This document shows, piece by piece, positions 2,746 to 14,022 of a stretch of 64,000 bases of DNA; position 1 is the stretch's first letter; each line of letters begins with the position of its first letter. Position numbers and translations under genes: made by a program. The notes beneath the pieces are model-generated. The model had not been told where the DNA came from. It searched no databases and saw only the letters and a program-made list of their open reading frames with translations. Source of the DNA: Nitrospirota bacterium (GTDB lineage: Bacteria > Nitrospirota > UBA9217); the NCBI GenBank assembly GCA_963741205.1, contig CAVUHW010000030.1, forward strand, positions 32,001 through 96,000, read 5' to 3'.

Positions 2746-4819
2746 TCATTTCTCTTCAGTGCTCAACACCAGCCGCGAGAAATCCGCGATCTGCGAAAAG
2801 AGCCCCGTGATGCCGGCCAGGAGCGCCAGGCGGTTCGCCTTGAGCGCGGCGTCCTTGTCCATGACCATGACCGTATCGAAAAAAGCGTCGACGGTCCTGC
2901 GGAGTGAAGCAATGTCCGCAAGTGCGCCCCGGAAATCGAGCTTCTCGGTCTTTTCGACGACGCGGTCCTTGATTTCCGCGAACGCGGCGTAGAGCGCCTT
3001 TTCAGCGTCCTGCGTGAGCAGCCCCTCGCTGACGGCGCCGGCAAAACCCTTCGGCAGGATGTTGCCGGCCCGCTTGAGCGCCGTTACCAGCGGCTGGTAG
3101 TCCACCGAAACGCGCAGCGCGTCAAGTGCCCTGACCTTCTCGCGTCCGATGACCGGATCATCGAACCCGACGGACAGCGCGGCATCCACAATATCGGAAC
3201 GGAGCCCCTCGGACGCCAGCATGCCGGAAAGCCGCTGACGCAAAAAGTCCAGGGTCTCCGCCGCGACCCTGTCGGCCTTCTCAAGGCCGTATCCCTTGCA
3301 GGCCTCGGCGACGAGAGCCGAGAGCGATAGCCTGAGCCCCCGGTCAAGAAGCATAGTGAGGATGGCAACGGACTGCCTTCTAAGGCCGTAGGGGTCTTCG
3401 GACCCGCTCGGGATAAGCCCGGCCGAGAAGCACCCCGTGATCGTATCGATGCGGTCGGCAATCCCGACAGCAGACGCCTTCGAGCGAATTCGGAAGCTTA
3501 TCGCCGGCAAAACGCGGCAGATAGTGTTCGAGTATGGCGTCCGCCACAGCGGGGGCTTCGCCGGAGTTCAGCGCATAATGCCTGCCCATCACGCCCTGGA
3601 GCTTGGGAAACTCACCAACGACGCCCGTGAGCAGGTCCGCCTTGCACAACAGCGCCGCCCGTTCCGACGCCTGGATATCCGCCTTGAAGACGTCGGCCAG
3701 GTATCCGGCAAGCGCCTTCACGCGCATGGTCTTGTCGTAGAGCGTGCCAAGCTTCTCCTGGTACGTAACTTTTTTAAGACCATCTACCCGGTCGGCCAGG
3801 GGCAGTTTCACGTCGTGGTCGAAGAAGTATGCCGCGTCGGAAAGCCGCGCGGCGAGCACGCGCTCGTTCCCTGCCCGGACGATCTCCATGTCCTCGGCCC
3901 GCGTGTTGCTGATCGTGATGAAATAAGGGAGCAGGTTGCCGGTTTTGTCCACCACGCTGAAGTAGCGCTGATGCTCGCGCATGGCCGTGATCAGGACCTC
4001 TTTCGGCACCCGGAGGTAATCCTTGTTGAAGTCGCCCATGACCGCGACCGGATACTCCAGGAGGTTCGCTACTTCATCGACGAGACCGGGGTCGTCGAGC
4101 ACGATTCCGTTCCTCGACAAGGCCATTTCTTCGGTCTGCTTCGCAATGCGCTGCCTGCGCGCTTGCGGTTCGGCGATAACGAAGTTCGGTTCCAACTGGG
4201 AGTAATAGGATTTGAAATCCTTGACGAGGAATGCGCCGGGACTCATGAACCGGTGGCCGCGCGAGAGGGTGCCGCTCTTGATCCCGTTCAGCCGGAAGTC
4301 GACGACGGCGCCGCCCCACAGGGCAAGCAGCCAGTGGATGGGACGGGCAAACCGTATGTCCTTGTCCATCCAGCGCATGGACTTAGGGAACGGGATGGAC
4401 AGGATGAAGCCGGGCAGCGCCTGTTTGAGCCAATCACCCGTGTCGCCGCCTTTTTCATCAATCCGGGCAACTACGTAATCGCCCTTATCCGTAGACTTGA
4501 ACGTGAGCGCGTCAACGGGGACGCCGTTCTTCTCGGCGAAGACCGTCGCGGCCTTGGTCGGTTTTCCCTCGGCATCAAAGGCGACCTTCCTCGGCGGGCC
4601 GACCACTTCCTTCGAGATATCAGCCTGGCGCTCGTCCATGTCGGGGCAATACAGGACCAGGCGTCTCGGCGTGCCGAAGGCCCTCAGGTCTCCTCGCGAG
4701 GCAACACGTCCCGAGGCAAGGAGCGCGGCAAAAAGCTCCTTCATCTTCTCAAGCGCCGGATTGAGGAAGCGGGACGGGATCTCTTCGGTGCCGATCTCTA
4801 ATAAGAATTCTTTTCCCAA
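2746..4819 (-). CDS. glyS: Glycine--tRNA ligase beta subunit (frameshift near 3470, probably an assembly indel)
   Basis: [32 protein letters not shown] in ORF 3380-4852; [11 protein letters not shown] and the anticodon-binding C-terminus in ORF 2746-3510. TTG start at 4819 follows GGAGA. Confidence 0.95.
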
Positions 4820-4847
4820 AATATCTCCAAAGACAAAAATGATCGCA

Positions 4848-4934
4848 ACCACAGATGAACACGGATTAACACGGATAATAAACCTGAGAAAATTTCTGCT
4901 TTAAAAACCGTGCCCATCTGTGTTCATCTGTGGC
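4848..4934. repeat. Intergenic inverted repeat (9-nt unit type)
   Basis: accacagatgaacacggattaacacgg ... ccgtgcccatctgtgttcatctgtgg. Confidence 0.75.
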
Positions 4935-5967: not shown

Positions 5968-8173
5968 TCACACCTGCCACATCATGGCCTCGAAGTCGTC
6001 GGTCGGGACCTTGAACTGGATGTATCCGCGGTAGGGCCACTTTTCCACTTCCGATCCTGAGCGCTCTACCGTAATGAAAAACTGGACGTCCTCGTTCGGT
6101 TTGACGCCGAGCAGTTCGAAGGGAACGGCAAGTTCGATGATATCATTCGCCGCGACGGTATTGATCACGGCGGCCTGCCGGCGGTTCCCGTTCTCTCCCC
6201 GGAAGAGCAGCGCGCTCACGCGCCTGTCCTGCGGGAGGACGCGAATTTCCACATCGAACCCCTTGGGAGAGAGGAAGGTGATGAAAAAAGCGAGTTCCGC
6301 CACCTTCTCATCCTTCAGGCTGCCGCTTGGGTCGAGGCGGATGAACATATTCTTCAGATCAAACCCGTAGTAGATGTGAGTGATGACTGATGCGCCCCGG
6401 TGCATGGCGCCTCCGCCCTGGCTTACGTCATAGAACCCGGCCGAGAGCCACTCGAAGTAATTGGTCACGGTGCCGTCGATCGTCGGAGAGATAAAGGCGG
6501 TCAGTTCCACGGTGGGCAGCGCCTGCCGGTCCTCGCGGAGGATGGGGATCTGAAGTTCATCGGGCACGTCCAGGCCGAGGATGCGGTAGACATTCATCAG
6601 GTGCGTCCTGAACAGGAGGTCGAACTCCTCGTCGTTCTCGGAAAAGTGGTCGTCGCCGTACCACCAGCACCAGTCGCTCCCTTCGGCGATGTAGATCTCC
6701 TCCCAGGCCTTCGCGAGCTTCTCCGGGTCGCCGTTCCGCGAGGCATAATCCGTGAGCGCCTGCCGCGTCTGCGACAGCAGGTCCCACGCCTGGTTGTCCT
6801 CTTCATGCCCGATCCAGACGCGGAAATTCGCGTTGATCCAGGAGCCCGCGTGCAGCCGCTCGATGCTGTCCCGGGCCGGGTGCTCATTCAGGTATTCGCC
6901 CACGGTCACGCACCGGAGCCCCTGTTCGCTGCTCAGCCGTTCATAGAGATACAGGAAGAAGTCCCGGCCGTCGTTCTGATAATATTCCCAGGCGTTCTCG
7001 CCGTCCAGGATGATCGACACCAGATGCGGTCCCTCCGGCAGCCCCCGTCGGACCCGGTGGAGGCGGTCGATGAGGTCGTTGACCGCATTCTTGTAATCCC
7101 ATTTCGAATACACGAAGCCGATGAGATCCGAAAGCGTATGGTCGCGAAACACGATCGAAACCTGTTTGTCCCCCTTGCCGGCGAGATAGGGTTTGTAGAG
7201 TAACGCGGGATTTTTCATCACGCCGGCGAAATCCCGCTCGATATGGATGCCGAGAGAGCGGGCGAGCACCCCCTCGTCCGTCGCGATCCACGTAATGCCC
7301 GCGCCGGCCAGGAGCGGAATGATATCCTCCGACACCGATCCCTCGGCGGGCCACATCCCCCGTGGCCGCGAACCGAAGAGTTCCTCATGGTACGCAAGCG
7401 CGCGCTCGATCTGGGCCTTGGCGTCCTCGGGATGGGAAAAACGGTGCTGCCGGGAGACGGATGTCGGGAGAGGCCACCCTGGCGAGGTCCGTGTCGTACA
7501 GGAGCGGGAGAATCGGGTGATAGAACGGGGTGGTCGTCAGCTCGATCCGGCCCTTCTCGGCAAGTTTCTTATACTCCGGAATGATGAGCGCCATGATGTC
7601 GCGCTGCTTCTGGATCAGAAGGACCTTCTCCTTCTCGGTGAAACCCGACCCCTTCCGGATCAGTTCCTTGAGAAACGGATCGTTTTGCTTGAAGAGCGGA
7701 TCGAACCAGGTAAGGTTGAACCAGACCTGCAGATCAAGATAGTCCTGCGTCGTATAGTACCGCGTGGCGTTCCAGAGGTCGTTGGGGGAAACGCTGTAGC
7801 CCCTCCGGTCAAGAAGCTGCCAGTAGGCCGGATAGGGCTTGATCATGGTGTCCCAGTTCGCCATGAAGGAGTTCTTGAGCAGGAACAGCTTGTCGTCATC
7901 GTCGAGTTCGCTGGCCGGCTTGAGCGTCAGAGTGAGGAACTTGTCGGTCGCGCCGTTCTCCACGTAGTCGCGTATCTGCTTGAGCAGAGAAGGAACGAGA
8001 TTGAAGGTCTGGTGGATCCGGGGGAAATCCTCAAGGAGCGACGGCATGTCGTAATAATCCTTGATGCCGTGCATCCGGACCCACGGAAGGATATAGGAAT
8101 CCGAGATATCGTCCTTGTAGTATGGCTGGTGCATGTGCCAGACGAAGGCTATGTTAAGCGGGTAGTCGGACAT
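5968..8173 (-). CDS. Glycoside hydrolase family 57 (amylopullulanase-like), frameshift near 7400
   Basis: WHMHQPYY, PFYHPILPLL, WPAEG (nucleophile), ILDGENAWE (acid/base), AEGSDWCWW. Confidence 0.92.
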
Positions 8174-8303
8174 GGCGACAAGGACAAGCTCGAAGTTCTA
8201 AGCTCGAAACTCTAAATTACCGTTCAAGATTCAACGCTGCACTGAAATTTTGAATATTCGATATTATTTCAAATTCAGGATTTCGAATTTAGGATTTTTT
8301 TTC

Positions 8304-8630
8304 CTACGGTTCGCCATAATAGTACACTATCTCACCGGGACGCGCAAGCCCGAGTTTGTCCCGGGCGATTTTCTCCAGATGGTCGGGATCGCTTCTCAAG
8401 GCGCGGACGTCCCTGAGCAGCCTGGCATTGTCATGGTGGAGCGTTGCGATATCCTCGGTAAGGGAATTGAACCTCGCTTTCATCCGGTAATACTTGATCA
8501 GGCCCATCTCACCGAAGGTGAAGGACGCGAGGAGGTAGGCGCCGGCAAGGATGCCCGCGGCGATAAGCACTTTCCGGTTGCGGGAATGCCGGGAATTCCG
8601 GTCAGATTTTAAATAATTCCTCTTGCGCAT
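8304..8630 (-). CDS. FtsB/DivIC septum formation initiator family protein
   Basis: One TM helix, GEMG, coiled coil, LEKIARDKLGLARPGEIVY. Confidence 0.85.
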   Translation of the reverse strand: MRKRNYLKSDRNSRHSRNRKVLIAAGILAGAYLLASFTFGEMGLIKYYRMKARFNSLTEDIATLHHDNARLLRDVRALRSDPDHLEKIARDKLGLARPGEIVYYYGEP

Positions 8631-8696
8631 GACTCGACGTATGAAGCCGCGGTCGCCTGTTACGAAAAAGTCTCAACACGATGAAACATCAAACGG

Positions 8697-8777
8697 GTCA
8701 TTCCCGCAATGCCTTTGAGGGGAATCCATTTTATTCACTCCAAGATGGTTCCCCGATAGCGGCATTAGGGGATGACG
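8697..8777. repeat. RS3/REP-like palindromic element
   Basis: gtcattcccgc..gggaatcca ... tggttccccg..ggggatgac. Confidence 0.55.
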
Positions 8778-8802
8778 AACTATTTTGTATCGTCACCAGA
8801 TC

Positions 8803-8836
8803 CAAAAACAAAGCCACGAAGACCGGCTTCGTGGCA
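8803..8836 (-). terminator. Intrinsic terminator after Lys-rich micro-ORF B
   Basis: Stem gccacgaag/cttcgtggc, followed by TTTGTTTTT on the minus strand. Confidence 0.75.
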
Positions 8837-8888
8837 GTGTGTCAGCTATTCAGCTCATGGATTTTCCTATCCATACATTTTACATCAC

Positions 8889-8945
8889 TTATTTCTTTTT
8901 TGTGGTCTTCTTCGCCTTTTTTGCCGGGGCTTTCTTCGTCGCCAT
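8889..8945 (-). CDS. Lys-rich micropeptide B, MATKKAPAKKAKKTTKKK (18 aa)
   Basis: Strong SD in GGAAGGGGGTGATGAGTA-ATG, TAA stop, own terminator. Below the ORF-track cutoff. Confidence 0.72.
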   Translation of the reverse strand: MATKKAPAKKAKKTTKKK

Positions 8946-9077
8946 TACTCATCACCCCCTTCCTTTGCACGCTGGTTAGAGAATAAAATGTGAAGAATGA
9001 TGCCGCTGCACCGCATTTCATGAAGGGTCTTGAAATAGTAACGACTTATGAGATCGTACACGCTGTTTTTACTGTCG

Positions 9078-9111
9078 CTAAATACGCCGGGGGCATTCCT
9101 TGCCCCCGGCG
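9078..9111 (-). terminator. Hairpin terminator after Lys-rich micro-ORF A
   Basis: Perfect 11-bp stem cgccgggggca/tgcccccggcg, followed by TATTT on the minus strand. Confidence 0.65.
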
Positions 9112-9141
9112 GGCCCCACTACGGGACGCGATGTGCGAAAG

Positions 9142-9204
9142 CTACTTCTTTTTGGTGGCTTTCTTCTTGGTCGCCTTCTTCTTTGCCTTCTTCTTGGCTG
9201 CCAT
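9142..9204 (-). CDS. Lys-rich micropeptide A, MAAKKKAKKKATKKKATKKK (20 aa)
   Basis: SD in GAAAGGGGGTGGAGAGCTA-ATG, TAG stop, mixed synonymous codons, followed by a hairpin. Confidence 0.72.
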   Translation of the reverse strand: MAAKKKAKKKATKKKATKKK

Positions 9205-9251
9205 TAGCTCTCCACCCCCTTTCGGTATACCGCATTCGGACCCAAGCGGCC

Positions 9252-9713
9252 TTATCTTGAAACAAGCTGAGGAACATCGTTCAGCAGTGACATCTGCGAG
9301 TATTTCTCCCGGATCTTGCCGTTCACGAGTTCGAGGAATTCTTCGGCATCTTTGATCGCCTGCCCGGCCTCGTACCGGGAGATGATGCGGCCGGCTTCTT
9401 CCATGAAACTCTGATATTTTCTCCGCATCCGGTCGAATTTATTGATGAGGCTTTTATACTGCTCGCCGAGAAGCATCCCGGCCGCGGTCACCACGGTCTT
9501 TTGCGCGTCTCTGCCCCGGACCCCTTTGGGCCGGAATCCCTCGGAGAGGATAAGGGCCCTCGCCGAGCGGGCCATTGCAAGGTAGGCCGCCGCAAACGCC
9601 CACTCTTCGTCTTTGTCCTGAAGGAGTTTGCTCGTCGAGAGGTCCCGGTCCGCCCTGGTCACGAGAGCAATGATCTCCGTAATCTCCGGGGCGCGCTCCT
9701 CAACGATGCCCAT
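9252..9713 (-). CDS. HEPN-fold protein lacking the catalytic Rx4-6H motif
   Basis: WAFAAAYLAMARSARAL and AIKDAEEFL helices typical of HEPN; lies next to an MNT gene; no His anywhere in the protein. Confidence 0.75.
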   Translation of the reverse strand: MGIVEERAPEITEIIALVTRADRDLSTSKLLQDKDEEWAFAAAYLAMARSARALILSEGFRPKGVRGRDAQKTVVTAAGMLLGEQYKSLINKFDRMRRKYQSFMEEAGRIISRYEAGQAIKDAEEFLELVNGKIREKYSQMSLLNDVPQLVSR

Positions 9714-9725
9714 TCTTTCAGCGCT

Positions 9726-10292
9726 TCATAAGTCATCTTCCTTACCTACCAGGAAAATCTTTTTGCCTTTCAGTAACTCCCGGATAAAGGGGTCTTTCGA
9801 TTCCTTCCGTTTCCGGTACTCCTGCTCATCAAAAACCAGATAATCGATATCCCGCTTCAGCTTTTCCTCCAGGCCCATGACCATGTCGTTCAATTCCGTG
9901 ATGTTCGCCTGGCCGATGACCATGAGGTTGATGTTGCTGTCCTCTTTTTCCGCCCCCTTTGCATAGGAGCCGTAGATGAAGGCCACCTGGACTCCCTTCA
10001 GCCGGGACAGCGATGTCTTCATGGCGCCCTGAGCGCCGGTGGTCTTGAAGATCAGACCTTTCATCTCGGAGAAGATCGGAGAGTTTTTGTTCGCGAAGTA
10101 GTATTTCTGCACCCCCCGCTTCTCTTTTCCGAGAAGCCCGATCTTGACCAGTTTGTCAAGCTCCCGCTTGATCCCCGCCGCATCCTTGCCGATGTGTCGC
10201 GCTATCTCTCTCAGATAGAACCGGTCGTCCGGATTGTTAAAGAACAGGCCTAAAAGCTCCGCTCTCGTGGAAGAGAAGAGTTTTGTCAGCAC
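9726..10292 (-). CDS. Winged-helix + minimal nucleotidyltransferase (MNT) protein with degenerate active site
   Basis: N-terminal HTH (FYLREIARHIG..IKRELDKL); AFIYGSYAKGAEKEDSNINL where GS-x10-DxD is expected. Confidence 0.85.
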   Translation of the reverse strand: MLTKLFSSTRAELLGLFFNNPDDRFYLREIARHIGKDAAGIKRELDKLVKIGLLGKEKRGVQKYYFANKNSPIFSEMKGLIFKTTGAQGAMKTSLSRLKGVQVAFIYGSYAKGAEKEDSNINLMVIGQANITELNDMVMGLEEKLKRDIDYLVFDEQEYRKRKESKDPFIRELLKGKKIFLVGKEDDL

Positions 10293-10308
10293 TTGTATTC
10301 ACCTCGTA

Positions 10309-10343
10309 GACAAAATATACTACAAGAGTGTATATTTTGTCAA
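10309..10343 (-). promoter_or_regulatory. Promoter with overlapping 12-bp inverted-repeat operator
   Basis: gacaaaatatac-N9-gtatattttgtc overlaps minus-strand TTGACA...TATATT. Confidence 0.75.
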
Positions 10344-10832
10344 CACAAATATTAAAAAAATTATATTTCCGATGACTTAGACAATTTATCAACACCTGAA
10401 TCAACACAATTTAAAATACGACCAAATATTATTTTTTTATATGTTATTTTCCACTTATTTATTGTGCGAGCATGGCGCGTGAATTTCACACAGGACAGCC
10501 GCAGGCTCGGACGCTCTCCGGCGAAAATACACGCGCGCTGCTCCATGAAACGTCGAATGATGGCGTAAACAGCACCCTTCCTTCATTACCTGCGCCAAGT
10601 TCCACGGCGCAGGATAACACCGTGATGAGTATGCGAATGCGTTCATGGTCTCATCCGCGTCTTCATCCAGTGCCGCGGACGGACCTGCGTTGAGATAACC
10701 TCCATTCGGACCACGGCTGAAGACGCACACCGAGGCAATCGGCAGATTTCCCTTTTGCTCGGCAGGCCACTTATGGTATACTAAAAAAAATATTTCGTTG
10801 ACATATTGTCTTCAAAAAGACATCGGAGGAAA

Positions 10833-12084
10833 ATGGATTTCAGTGAACTGGATGTGCCCTACGAAGTGAAGCAAGGAATCGAGCACTCGGGCTTTTCCAT
10901 ATTGACGCCCGTTCAGGAGGCGGTGATACCGCGAGCGGTCCGCGGAGAAGATGTCGCCGCGCAGGCGCAAACCGGTACGGGCAAGACCGCCGCCTTCCTG
11001 ATCTCGCTCTTTGCCCGCATGATCAGGAACCCGGCCCTGGACCTCGGGAACTCGCCGCAGGCGCTGATCATCGCGCCCACGCGCGAGCTTGCGGACCAGA
11101 TCTACCACGAAGCCCTGCGGCTCGGAAAGTTCACGGGCTTTCATCTTCTCGCCGTCTACGGCGGCATCGATTACCAGAAACAGATGGATGAACTCCGGAA
11201 GGGCGTCGATGTGCTTGTCGGCACGCCGGGCAGGCTCATCGATTATTTCAAGCAGAACGTTTACAGCCTCAAGAAAACCCGGTACCTGATCATCGACGAG
11301 GCCGACCGCATGTTCGACATGGGATTCATCGACGACCTGCGGTATCTTCTGAAGAAGATGCAGCCCTACACGAAGCGGCAGTCGATGCTCTTCTCCGCCA
11401 CCCTTTCCTACCGCGTGATGGAGCTTGCCTACGAATTCATGAACCTCCCGGAAAAGATCTCGATCACGCCGGAGAAGATCACCGTCGAGCAGGTGGAGCA
11501 GGTCCTTTATCACGTGGGCAAGCACGAGAAGATACCGCTGCTCCTGGGCCTCCTCAGGAAGGAACAGCCCGTCCGCACCCTCGTCTTCGTGAATACGCGG
11601 CGCGCGGCCGACATGGTCGTCGAGCGCTTGAACCGCAACGGCTGGAAGGCCGACGCGATCACCGGCGACATCGTCCAGAAAAAGCGTCTCAGGCTCCTCG
11701 CGGACTTCAAGGAAGGAAAGCTCCCCATCCTCGTGGCCACCGACGTCGCGAGCCGCGGCATCCACGTCGAGGCCGTCTCACATGTCATCAACTACGACCT
11801 CCCGCAGGACGCGGAAGACTACGTTCACCGCATCGGCCGCACCGGCCGCGCGGGAGCCGCCGGCAAGGCGCTCAGCCTGGCTGACGAGGAGTATGTTTTT
11901 TCCCTCGAAGAGATCGAAAAATATATCGGCCAGAAGATCCCCGTGGAATGGGCCGAGGAAGCCATGTACGTCAGGGAGATCCGGCGGACTGCGGAAGAAA
12001 GACAGCGTGCGGCCGCGGCTGCGCCTCAGCGCCGTTATCCCTCCGAGAAACCGCGGTTCTCGCTCACGGACAAAGAAACGCTGA
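10833..12084 (+). CDS. rhlB: DEAD-box RNA helicase (RhlB-like); 3' end uncertain
   Basis: AQTGTGKT, PTRELA, DEAD, SAT, HRIGRTGR. The ORF-track extension to 12659 runs into fadD. Confidence 0.88.
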
Positions 12085-12302
12085 CCCACCTTCCGCCCGC
12101 CAATCAAGACCGACTCTTTCCCGCAACTCCATCCGCGCATCGCCGGCCTTCACGCGCATCGGGCTTTGCTCCACACCCGGCAAACGTCTTTACCCCAGCG
12201 TGTTATAATAGTATTAGAGATTTCAGAGTGTTTCTGTCTGAAATCTCTCCCGGATGGCGCGGAAAACCGAGGCGCCGATCATCCGGGAGGGAGACCGGTT
12301 CA

Positions 12303-14022
12303 ATGACTGCCGTCATGTCCTCTGAAAATGTCGAAAGGCCTTGGCTGAAATTCTATGAGGCCGGTGTACCCCCGGTCTCGCCTACCCCGAGATACACTCT
12401 CGGTGACTGTCCTTTCCCAAACCGCAAAGAAATTCCCGCGACCATACGCGCTCATTTTTTATGGCAAAAAAATCTCCTTCGCGGAACTCGACGGACTCGT
12501 CAACCGGTTCGCCCGCGCCCTTCTGCGTCTCGGCGTCAGGAAAGGCGACCGAGTGGCGCTCATGCTTCCGAACATCCCGCAGATGGTCATCGCCTATTAC
12601 GGAACACTGCGAACCGGCGCAATAGCCGTTCCGACCAACCCCCTCTATCACGAGCATGAACTGGACATCCAGCTCAATGACAGCGGGGCCGTGATCGCTC
12701 GTGGCGGTGGATATGTTCTATCCCGTCATCTCCCGCGTCCTGCCGATGACGCGCTGTGAAGCGCCTGATCCTTTGCGGCATCAAGGACTTCCTGCCCTTT
12801 CCCCTGAACCTGCTCTACCCCTTCAAGGCGAGAATGGACAAACAGTGGGTAAGCGTTAAACGCGTGCCGCCGCATATACGATTTTCTCGACCTCATCCGT
12901 CACGAATCGCGCCGCGGCGGTGGAGACGGCTTCGTGTCGCCCGACGACACCGCGCTGCTCCAGTACACCGGCGGGCACGACGGGCGTTCCGAAAGGAGCG
13001 GTCCTTACTCACCGCAACCTCGTCGTAAACGCGGTTCAGAGCAGGTCCTGGCTCACGCTTCGGAACGAAGGAGAAACGAGTATCCTCGCCGTCATTCCCT
13101 TTTTCCATGTCTACGGAATGACCGCAGCCATGAACCTCGGCATCCTCATCGGGGCCGAGCATGATCCTCCTCCCCAAGTTCCATACAAAAGAGGTGCTCC
13201 GACGTGATCGAGAAATACCGGCCGCACAATATTCCCGGGCATCCAGGCCATGTACCTTGCCATCAGCCACTATCCGAAGATCAAGAAGTATGATCTCACG
13301 TCGCTGAAGATCGCCATCAGCGGCGCGGGCCCGCTCATGCGCGAGGTGCAGGATCGAGTTCGAACAGTTGACCCCGGCGCGGATCGTCGAGGGCTACGGC
13401 CTTTCCGAAGCGTCCCCCGTGACCCACGCGAACCCCATCTTCGGCAGGCGCAAAGTCGGCAGCATCGGCCTTCCCTGGCCGGATACCGAGGCGTGCGATC
13501 GTGGACATCGAGAGCGGCAAGAAGGCCTGCCGCTTCGGCGAGGCCGGCGAACTCGTCATCAGAGGGCCGCAGGTCATGAAGGGATACTGGAACAAACCCG
13601 ACGAGACGGCGCTGGCCCTCAGGGACGGATGGCTCCATACGGGCGACATCGCGAGGATGGACGAGGATGGCTACTTTTATATAGTCGGACGGATCAAGGA
13701 TATGATCAAGACGGTGGGCGAGAACGTCTACCCGCGCGAGGTTGAGGAAGTGCTGTACACGCATCCGAAGGTCAAGGAGGCCGTGGTCGTTGGCCTTCCC
13801 CACGAGGAATTCCTGGGCGAGAAGATCAAGGCTTATGTCGTTCTCAAGGAAGGGCAGAGCGCGACGGCAGAGGAACTCATCCAGTACTGCAGGGAGCAAC
13901 TCTCGAAGTTCAAGGTGCCGAAGGAGATAGAGTTCCGCGATCAGCTCCCGAAGACCCTGGTGGGCAAGATGCTTCGGCGCGTGCTCAGGGATGAGGAGAT
14001 GAAGAAGGTGCAGGCAAAGTAG
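12303..14022 (+). CDS. fadD: Long-chain fatty acid--CoA ligase (several indels)
   Basis: [70 protein letters not shown], spread across frames. Confidence 0.92.

Follow-up and report, generated by a model that had tools for sequence, protein, structure and literature searches.

Are two short runs of lysine codons on a metagenomic contig genes, and if they are, what would their products do? The question is raised by two mini open reading frames (mini-ORFs), here called kA and kB, on the minus strand of a 64,000-nucleotide (nt) stretch of a Nitrospirota genome (assembly GCA_963741205.1, contig CAVUHW010000030.1, positions 32,001 to 96,000), which we call the window and whose coordinates are used below unless a contig is named. 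An initial annotation had proposed Lys-rich frames at 9142-9204 and 8889-8945, 50-60% Lys and free of acidic residues, written in mixed synonymous codons and each preceded by a strong Shine-Dalgarno (SD) sequence; in all these respects it was right. kA starts at an ATG (9204..9202) and runs over 20 codons to a TAG stop (9144..9142; MAAKKKAKKKATKKKATKKK), while kB has 18 codons between its ATG (8945..8943) and a TAA (8891..8889; MATKKAPAKKAKKTTKKK). Lys makes up 12 of the 20 amino acids (aa) of kA (60%) and 9 of the 18 of kB (50%), from a mixture of AAG and AAA codons; Asp and Glu are absent from both, the net charge of the peptides is +9 to +12, and with Met included their masses are about 2.2 kDa (kA) and 2.0 kDa (kB). 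The SD of kA, GAAAGGGGGTGG (9223..9212), lies 7 nt before the ATG, that of kB, GGAAGGGGGTGAT (8963..8951), 5 nt before it. Since the 3' end of the 16S rRNA of this genome is the ordinary one (...GGATCACCTCCTTTCT), the pairing of each SD with it extends over 12-13 nt and includes one G.U, an unusual length.

To begin with chance, the whole genome (4,265,302 bases, 56.3% GC) was scanned for ATG-started ORFs of 10-60 aa that contain no Asp or Glu and have a Lys content of 40% or more; four matched, and the only ones longer than 10 aa were kA and kB, which are each other's neighbours at a distance of 197 nt. As the sole such ORFs of at least 18 aa in 4.27 Mb, with an SD pattern that recurs throughout the phylum against one match in a reversed control (see below), they are not to be explained by chance.

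Both genes are conserved within the window's own family (f1; the labels f2 to f38 denote the other Nitrospirota families of the genome set). A blastn search with the 521-nt kA-kB region matched 36/36 same-family genomes, 34 of them at E values of 6.1e-15 or below, and gave only E values from 2.1e-8 to 1.27 in 24 genomes of other families. Among the 20 best loci, found by DNA similarity alone, kA is present in 20 and kB in 19, the twentieth being cut by the end of a contig. A further 52 loci, found independently through the HEPN-like protein encoded directly upstream of kA, hold a kA-type ORF in 51 cases, the exception being a sequence that ends 70 nt past the HEPN-like gene, and kB in 48; two mini-ORFs stand in 45 of these loci, three in 3 and one in 3. 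The strict form of the kA pattern is confined to f1, with 42/63 genomes vs 0/337 genomes of other families.

Over the 20-locus alignment, the variable columns at codon positions 1, 2 and 3 number 3, 1 and 12 in kA and 2, 2 and 17 in kB, and gaps measure only 3 or 6 nt in kA and only 3 nt in kB. Ala codons wobble between GCA, GCG and GCC with the GC fixed, and AAAGGGGGTGG in the kA SD is invariant; the spacer between the genes (8946..9078, minus strand) is not conserved, at 1% invariant columns. A third-position bias of this kind, indels in multiples of three and the retention of SD, start and stop indicate purifying selection on the Lys reading frame of both kA and kB, and by this measure the two are real, conserved and paralogous genes of a size that goes unannotated, each with its own SD. 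This bears out the initial annotation, which had taken them for paralogous genes rather than simple repeats and had pointed to a conserved succession of SD, ATG, Lys-rich frame and stop in relatives as the check; non-conservation was not seen. The alternative frames are likewise open, because AAG repeats contain no stops, and the wobble changes of the Lys frame would be non-synonymous there. Two other ways of reading the region were rejected: a gene on the opposite strand, for a hydrophobic Leu/Phe peptide, has no conserved SD or start and would have its peptide altered by the wobble changes of the Lys frame, and kA is not taken for a split-off tail of the HEPN-like gene, as the frame differs.

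The initial annotation, right about the reality of the genes, missed both their spread through the phylum and their tie to an upstream helix-turn-helix (HTH) protein gene. Other families were first reached through weak blastn matches. A search of 401 Nitrospirota genomes for a strong SD, 3-8 nt, a start codon and M-A-(T/A)-K-K then gave matches in 186, with the reversed control yielding one match. The pattern is present in 73/76 genomes of f9, throughout f4 (7/7), f6 (3/3), f15 (3/3), f19 (3/3) and f25 (4/4), and in some genomes of f26 (9/13), f27 (5/9), f17 (11/40) and f11 (10/35). Twenty matches from nine families all proved to be stand-alone ORFs of 11-52 aa with a strong hairpin after each, and the long ones are repeats of KKKAPA-type units. 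Across the family the peptides start M-A-(T/A/P)-K-K and consist nearly entirely of Lys, Ala, Thr and Pro, there are 1 to 3 copies per locus, and from one Nitrospirota family to another the start codon swaps between ATG, TTG and GTG at the same distance from the conserved SD.

Among the shortest members are those of f9, which protein names in the source records identify as the Nitrospiraceae. Here the region of SD, ORF and terminator was matched in 50/61 genomes (49/60 without one flagged as unpublished), and all 30 loci examined (L188-L217) contain the mini-ORF, started by TTG in 28 of them; in nearly all genera the TTG stands behind a perfect GAAGGGAGGTGAG SD. Where the ORF has 12 codons (18 loci), 17 loci encode MATKKAAKKKKK (12 aa); in the other loci the product has 11-18 aa. 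For the 18 distinct 12-codon loci, the variable columns by codon position are 0, 0 and 9 of 13 each, and 36/40 columns upstream vary, mostly outside the SD. In genus g27 a second SD+MATKK site, started by ATG, is present elsewhere in many genomes, with an 18-aa ORF (MATKKAAKKPAKKAAKKK) in the two loci read. Taken as a whole, the shared architecture places kA and kB in a Nitrospirota-wide family of micro-genes (11-52 aa) that includes the Nitrospira nitrifiers.

The main locus has three constants: a gene for a basic HTH protein upstream, the mini-ORF or mini-ORFs as the last cistron, and a terminator-like hairpin. The genes around kA and kB, all on the minus strand, are in order a gene for a 188-aa protein with a winged HTH (wHTH) and an MNT-like nucleotidyltransferase domain (9726..10292), the 153-aa HEPN-like gene (9252..9713), kA, kB, FtsB/DivIC (8630..8304), GH57, glyQ, glyS and pyruvate phosphate dikinase; a divergent gene for a DEAD-box helicase lies at 10806. 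FtsB is the downstream gene in 43/52 f1 loci, and the block from the MNT-like gene to kB is intact in six loci with another downstream gene. The Nitrospiraceae instead have a 171-aa HARE-HTH gene upstream of the mini-ORF in 23/30 loci and a convergent lpxC in 28/30; of the 20 loci from nine other families, 10 have a HARE-HTH gene and 5 an MNT-like gene upstream, and lpxC is convergent in 13. A convergent lpxC is also found in f6, f14 and f2 (9/10 mini-ORF loci) and is missing at the f38 locus L175. A strong hairpin, in most cases terminator-like, follows kB as well as the mini-ORF in 30/30 Nitrospiraceae loci and in 20/20 loci of nine families. Some mini-ORF copies at other loci do not have these neighbours (L201 and L205 among them, and four of the twenty pattern matches examined). 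The upstream proteins are basic, with isoelectric points of 8.9-9.8, for which reason a role as acidic chaperones of the peptides was rejected. A set of 120 HARE-HTH homologues measures 169-206 aa, all near the 171 aa of the query, which is a further reason for rejecting an origin as a split-off tail, although their sequences were not inspected for Lys-rich tails.

As for transcription, contigs of four metatranscriptome runs from four studies were placed on the window at 85% likeness, and derive from relatives. All four runs have contigs covering 9084..9299 or part of it, a segment with the hairpin, ORF and leader of kA; kB with its SD (8892..8987) is covered in three of them, X5 being the exception. 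We take this as weak support, and for transcription only, because contigs in RNA libraries can derive from DNA. The stretches 8700..8795 and 9012..9059 are without coverage; the latter lies in the spacer, where the gap says nothing, because the spacer is not conserved and relatives cannot map there. Where contigs end near 9271-9273 there is a variable wobble site, and we do not read these ends as the beginning of a transcript.

What, then, would these genes make? We strongly infer that kA and kB are translated, and we lean, somewhat past an even balance, towards the reading that they are micro-genes whose free Lys/Ala/Thr/Pro polycations act on polyanions; that the peptides are abundant and bind polyanions, and which polyanion they bind, we infer. 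A mini-ORF at the 3' end of a transcription unit, behind the gene for a basic HTH protein (a degenerate wHTH-nucleotidyltransferase/HEPN pair in this lineage, HARE-HTH in the Nitrospiraceae), would be translated from its unusually long SD, and removal of Met would leave a free, disordered polycation. Such a peptide would bind polyanions electrostatically, be they DNA, RNA or ribosomes, or possibly polyphosphate, and would work like a detached histone-H1 C-terminal tail or a protamine, neutralising the charge of the polymer and compacting or bridging it. That the peptide itself would be the product is suggested by the position as last cistron, by conserved non-Lys residues with free wobble, by the interchange of start codons and by the repeat-driven variation in length; the drift from 11 to 52 aa by gain of KKKAPA-type repeats parallels that of histone-H1-like proteins.

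Several points weigh against this reading. Translation is deduced from sequence features, and a 3-periodic pattern with a free third base would also fit an (A-R-N)n RNA motif in a genome that has Hfq. The RNA contigs come from relatives; their depth cannot rank genes, and conserved segments pool many strains. A peptide of 11-12 aa may be too short or too unstable to act alone, and no result points to a binding target. Nor would the mini-ORF be a universal Nitrospirota component, because many families gave no match to the searched pattern, among them f10 (0/28), f16 (0/14), f24 (0/14), f3 (0/12) and f8 (0/11). The genome, 84% complete, gave no match to the polyphosphate kinase PPK1 (PF02503), and this counts neither way.

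The alternative that fares best, and which we nevertheless judge unlikely, is that the mini-ORF acts in cis: its translation, through ribosome occupancy, slow poly-Lys decoding or Lys-tRNA sensing, would determine how stable the operon RNA is and whether it is terminated or read through, as at the kA hairpin into kB, and the released peptide would be irrelevant. The very strong SD combined with a weak TTG start in many lineages is what such a device might look like, and so are the stems conserved 14-30 nt past the kA stop with a short U tail only. This 3' element (9079..9127) comprises a small stem P1 (9127..9113) and an 11-bp GC stem P2 (9111..9085) followed by TATTTA; of the 9 pairs of P2 compared in 53 sequences, 4 have compensatory double changes and the others are nearly invariant. 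The initial annotation had given each gene a terminator of its own, and this stands for kB, where a 9-bp stem with 6 GC pairs (8835..8813, within 8803..8835) is followed by TTTGTTTTTG, a canonical GC-rich stem and U-run kept in 19/19 loci that reach it; the P2 stem of kA, strong and conserved as it is, has only a 3-U tail. Upstream of kA, a small leader hairpin (GCCGC...GCGGT, 9229..9250) lies between the HEPN-like stop and the SD, with no covariation to be tested because its arms are nearly invariant in the 20-locus alignment. In the same alignment the last 52 nt of the HEPN-like gene have 71% invariant columns, synonymous sites included, vs 35% further upstream; this synonymous-site conservation over some 50 nt also suits control in cis, and a promoter or leader signal for kA is likely embedded in the 3' end of the HEPN-like gene (9252-9300). 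Scanning 8500..9800 for sigma-70 promoters yielded 0 sites, where 0.5 were expected, and no promoter could be placed by eye.

What tells against control in cis is the position of the genes: kB and the Nitrospiraceae ORFs are last cistrons, with a terminator-like hairpin and mostly a convergent gene next, so that nothing is left downstream to regulate, and the only gene downstream of kA on the same transcript is kB. In addition, the identities of Ala, Thr and Pro are kept while the wobble base varies, a range of 11-52 aa would be unexpected for a tuned stalling leader, and no alternative anti-terminator pairing is evident in the predicted folds. The suggestion in the initial annotation of a poly-Lys ribosome-stalling sensor is weakened by the same ends of units and the same spread in length.

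It is less probable still, in our estimation, that the peptides are lineage-specific ribosome-associated micro-proteins that fill rRNA grooves, by analogy with bTHX, bL37, bS22 and eL41. Their size, charge and strong SD would fit, the same A[AG]GGGGGTG SD precedes the gene of ribosomal protein S21 in this genome, and small basic ribosomal proteins of other phyla are reported to have been found only by cryo-electron microscopy (PMC6133939, PMC10085706). Against this, searches of Pfam and NCBIfam returned no ribosomal family, and in many families of the phylum the pattern was not found. The mini-ORFs also vary widely in length and repeat number (11-52 aa) and come in 1-3 copies per locus, whereas the known ribosomal micro-proteins have a fixed length and non-repetitive Arg/Lys sequences.

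We give little credence to the view that the peptides are the third component, effector or substrate, of a domesticated MNT/HEPN module resembling a type VII toxin-antitoxin (TA) system, with an action dependent on both proteins. The linkage is close: in five further families, 1-3 Lys-rich mini-ORFs come straight after the orthologous pair in 10/10 loci with an MNT identity of at least 47% (three each in three f6 genomes, two in f14, one in f38, and one each in five f2 genomes, with a GTG or TTG start), and the block stays together in the six loci with a differing downstream gene. Seven weaker or paralogous MNT-HEPN loci (L181-L187) have no mini-ORF by the filter used, a soft negative, since the genome of L181 (G172) matches the pattern somewhere; in the three of these whose motif is readable (L181, L183, L184) the nucleotidyltransferase DxD is canonical, DID or DVD, and the other four are weak loci.

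In f1 the pair itself appears to have lost its active sites. The MNT-like protein, first of the block, has matches to Pfam Polbeta/NTP_transf_2 and NCBIfam MntA below threshold; it is found in 51/52 loci at 81-99% identity, lacks the catalytic GSx(9-13)DxD of nucleotidyltransferases, and reads N-I-N or N-V-N in place of DxD in 40/40 readable f1 loci (12/52 were unread). In the other mini-ORF-linked families the motif reads DVN, DIN, TID, EIE or EID, and DID in two. The HEPN-like gene (Pfam HEPN, E 9e-10) is syntenic in 52/52 loci, by construction of that search. At the position of its Rx4-6H motif, 55 sequences read RMRRKY (48), RMRRKH (3), LMRRRR (3) or RMRRKQ (1), with His in 3/55; no invariant His and no conserved Rx4-6H RNase motif was found in the alignment. 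A sequence search of the PDB with the MNT-like protein and the HEPN-like profile gave 0 matches. Judging by these motifs, the pair is probably catalytically dead, a domesticated, non-enzymatic pair of the TA type with a wHTH, single-copy and syntenic through the lineage.

A dependence of the peptides on such a pair is hard to reconcile with the Nitrospiraceae, where 73/76 genomes have the mini-ORF and 0/76 a HEPN-like match, with HARE-HTH upstream instead; because this family keeps the mini-ORF without a HEPN-like match, we suggest that the peptide is independent of the pair. Loci of f15 and f11 show an MNT gene and no HEPN match, and the common position beside lpxC suggests synteny by descent. 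Nucleotidylylation of Thr is unlikely because Thr is not conserved in the peptides, and the catalytic motifs of both proteins are degenerate; AMPylation of the peptides at Thr was rejected, as many orthologues have neither Thr nor Ser.

The weakest alternative, an RNA element with an incidental ORF, in which AAG/AAA repeats of an abundant small RNA serve as (A-R-N)n sites for the distal face of Hfq or for another RNA-binding protein, can point to Lys codons that are perfect A-R-N triplets and so would leave the third position free here too, to the binding of A-rich and A-R-N sequence reported for that face (PMC3936774), to three Hfq-domain matches in the genome (C34:110978-111163 and C45:76870-77247, two in tandem on C45) and to a kA RNA with conserved 5' and 3' stems, but it leaves unexplained the conserved SD at fixed spacing, the ATG/TTG/GTG interchange, the in-frame stop and the conserved GCN, ACN and CCN codons, and Rfam covariance models gave 0 matches at E up to 1 on either strand of 7000..12000.

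Some further observations in this genome may be recorded. Besides kA and kB there are two conserved Lys-rich mini-ORFs with strong SDs elsewhere. One, of 20 aa (MAASRQGAKKEVKKPKSKKK, with SD AAAAGGAGGTG; C15:138224-138286, minus strand, L104:1725-1787), is preceded by an 81-aa ORF and by an RRM-domain gene; its region has a match in 19/24 genomes of the family, and some of these have two copies. The other, of 25 aa and rich in Cys and Lys (MACGSKCGAKKSAKKTTATKKTTKK; C6:78413-78490, plus strand, L103), has the same GGAAGGGGGTG SD and is flanked by ribF and a gene for a class-I (W/Y) tRNA synthetase, some 2 kb ahead of the 16S rRNA; it was matched in 6/24 family genomes, as MACGS..CG..KK in five loci and in a looser Cys/Lys-rich form in L109. 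There may thus be more peptides of this sort in the lineage. A homopolymer of several hundred A/T at C37:17098-17988 gives poly-Lys in three frames and probably arose in the assembly. In the window, GH57 is split into two ORFs (7385-8173 and 5968-7356), glyS into two overlapping ORFs (2746-4852), and the DEAD-box ORF extends, without a change of frame, past the point where an ORF for an AMP-binding enzyme begins (10806-12759); so many frameshifts within a single window point to indel errors of the assembly.

If kA, kB and their relatives do make free polycations, the consequences would reach beyond this locus. We put forward tentatively, as a doubtful but attractive extension, that Nitrospirota encode oligolysine as a gene product, whether as abundant protamine- or polyamine-like counter-ions for the nucleoid, the ribosomes or polyphosphate, or as an undiscovered ribosomal protein. 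The family would then contain the shortest conserved protein genes yet seen, phylum-wide and of 11-12 codons in Nitrospira, which would set the lower size limit of conserved bacterial genes at that length, and a new class of polycation would stand beside nucleoid proteins, polyamines and Mg2+ in the neutralisation of nucleic acids. The peptides would have been invisible so far because gene callers skip such short ORFs and trypsin destroys the product, a blind spot common to gene prediction and tryptic proteomics. It would be a deeply conserved, unannotated family in the phylum to which comammox bacteria and the principal nitrite oxidisers of wastewater plants and soils belong. It is also directly testable in cultured Nitrospira, where it is present: in the f9 genome G052, of the nearest genus, the product of the gene before the mini-ORF shares 98% identity with a protein of Nitrospira defluvii. 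In the open-access texts searched (supplements and small-ORF catalogues fell outside this scope) the peptide strings appear in no paper, and nothing relevant was found there on lysine-rich or unannotated small proteins of Nitrospirota or Nitrospira.

How does the family compare with known systems? The upstream pair resembles the type VII TA system HepT-MntA in the order of nucleotidyltransferase then HEPN, in the small size of the proteins and in the N-terminal wHTH of the nucleotidyltransferase; it differs in its N-x-N motif, in the rarity of the His, in being single-copy and syntenic, and in the Lys-rich mini-ORFs that follow. With attenuator leader and arrest peptides the mini-ORFs share a tiny frame rich in one residue, a strong SD and a hairpin downstream, and they part from them in their variable length and in having no regulated gene after kB or the Nitrospiraceae ORF. 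Ribosomal micro-proteins such as bTHX, bL37, bS22 and eL41 are reported to be very basic, 20-35 aa long, missed by annotation and found late (PMC6133939, PMC10085706, PMC10081302). The mini-ORF family differs from them in its repeats, its range of 11-52 aa and its variable copy number.

Closer in character are protamines, the H1 C-terminal domain and the DNA-binding ScvA of the small-cell variant of Coxiella, all very small, highly basic and disordered and thought to neutralise charge, properties that our family would share. Protamines are Arg-rich and eukaryotic and ScvA is Arg/Gln-rich with about 30 aa, unlike the Lys-rich mini-ORF peptides, and no sequence relation is expected. The closest likeness is to bacterial H1-like proteins (Chlamydia Hc1/Hc2, PF07382; Pseudomonas AlgP; the Burkholderia type, NF038053; the N-domain of Streptomyces DdbA), which have the same low complexity of Lys, Ala, Pro and Thr, AKKK- or PAKK-type repeats and variation in length. 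The initial annotation had called the peptides histone-H1-like, and this holds for composition, with Lys/Ala/Pro/Thr repeats, no acidic residues and a length polymorphism through repeats, a likeness in manner of working, not in membership; to the family models the resemblance stays below threshold. Thus kA matches 0 families of Pfam and NCBIfam at E up to 1, and the longer relatives reach 13.9 bits against PF07382 HC2 (cut-off 40) and 10.3-12.9 bits against NF038053 (cut-off 80). A homologue search with a natural 52-aa relative gave 1 match at E 8.8e-4, which is uninformative, and the nearest clusters in the ESM Atlas contain small hypothetical proteins; in one set, 17% of the members carry PF07382 HC2. 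We treat these clusters as leads only. Chlamydia Hc2 is reported to vary in size by Lys-rich pentamers (PMC2848022), and bacterial H1-like proteins are reported to bind polyanions, namely DNA and, for AlgP, polyphosphate granules (PMC2848022, PMC9239181, PMC3643593). Those proteins are of about 100-350 aa and encoded by single genes; here the whole product has 11-52 aa and comes from 1-3 tandem genes. The kind of polycation is therefore known, and what would be new is its occurrence as stand-alone gene products of 11-52 aa conserved across a phylum.

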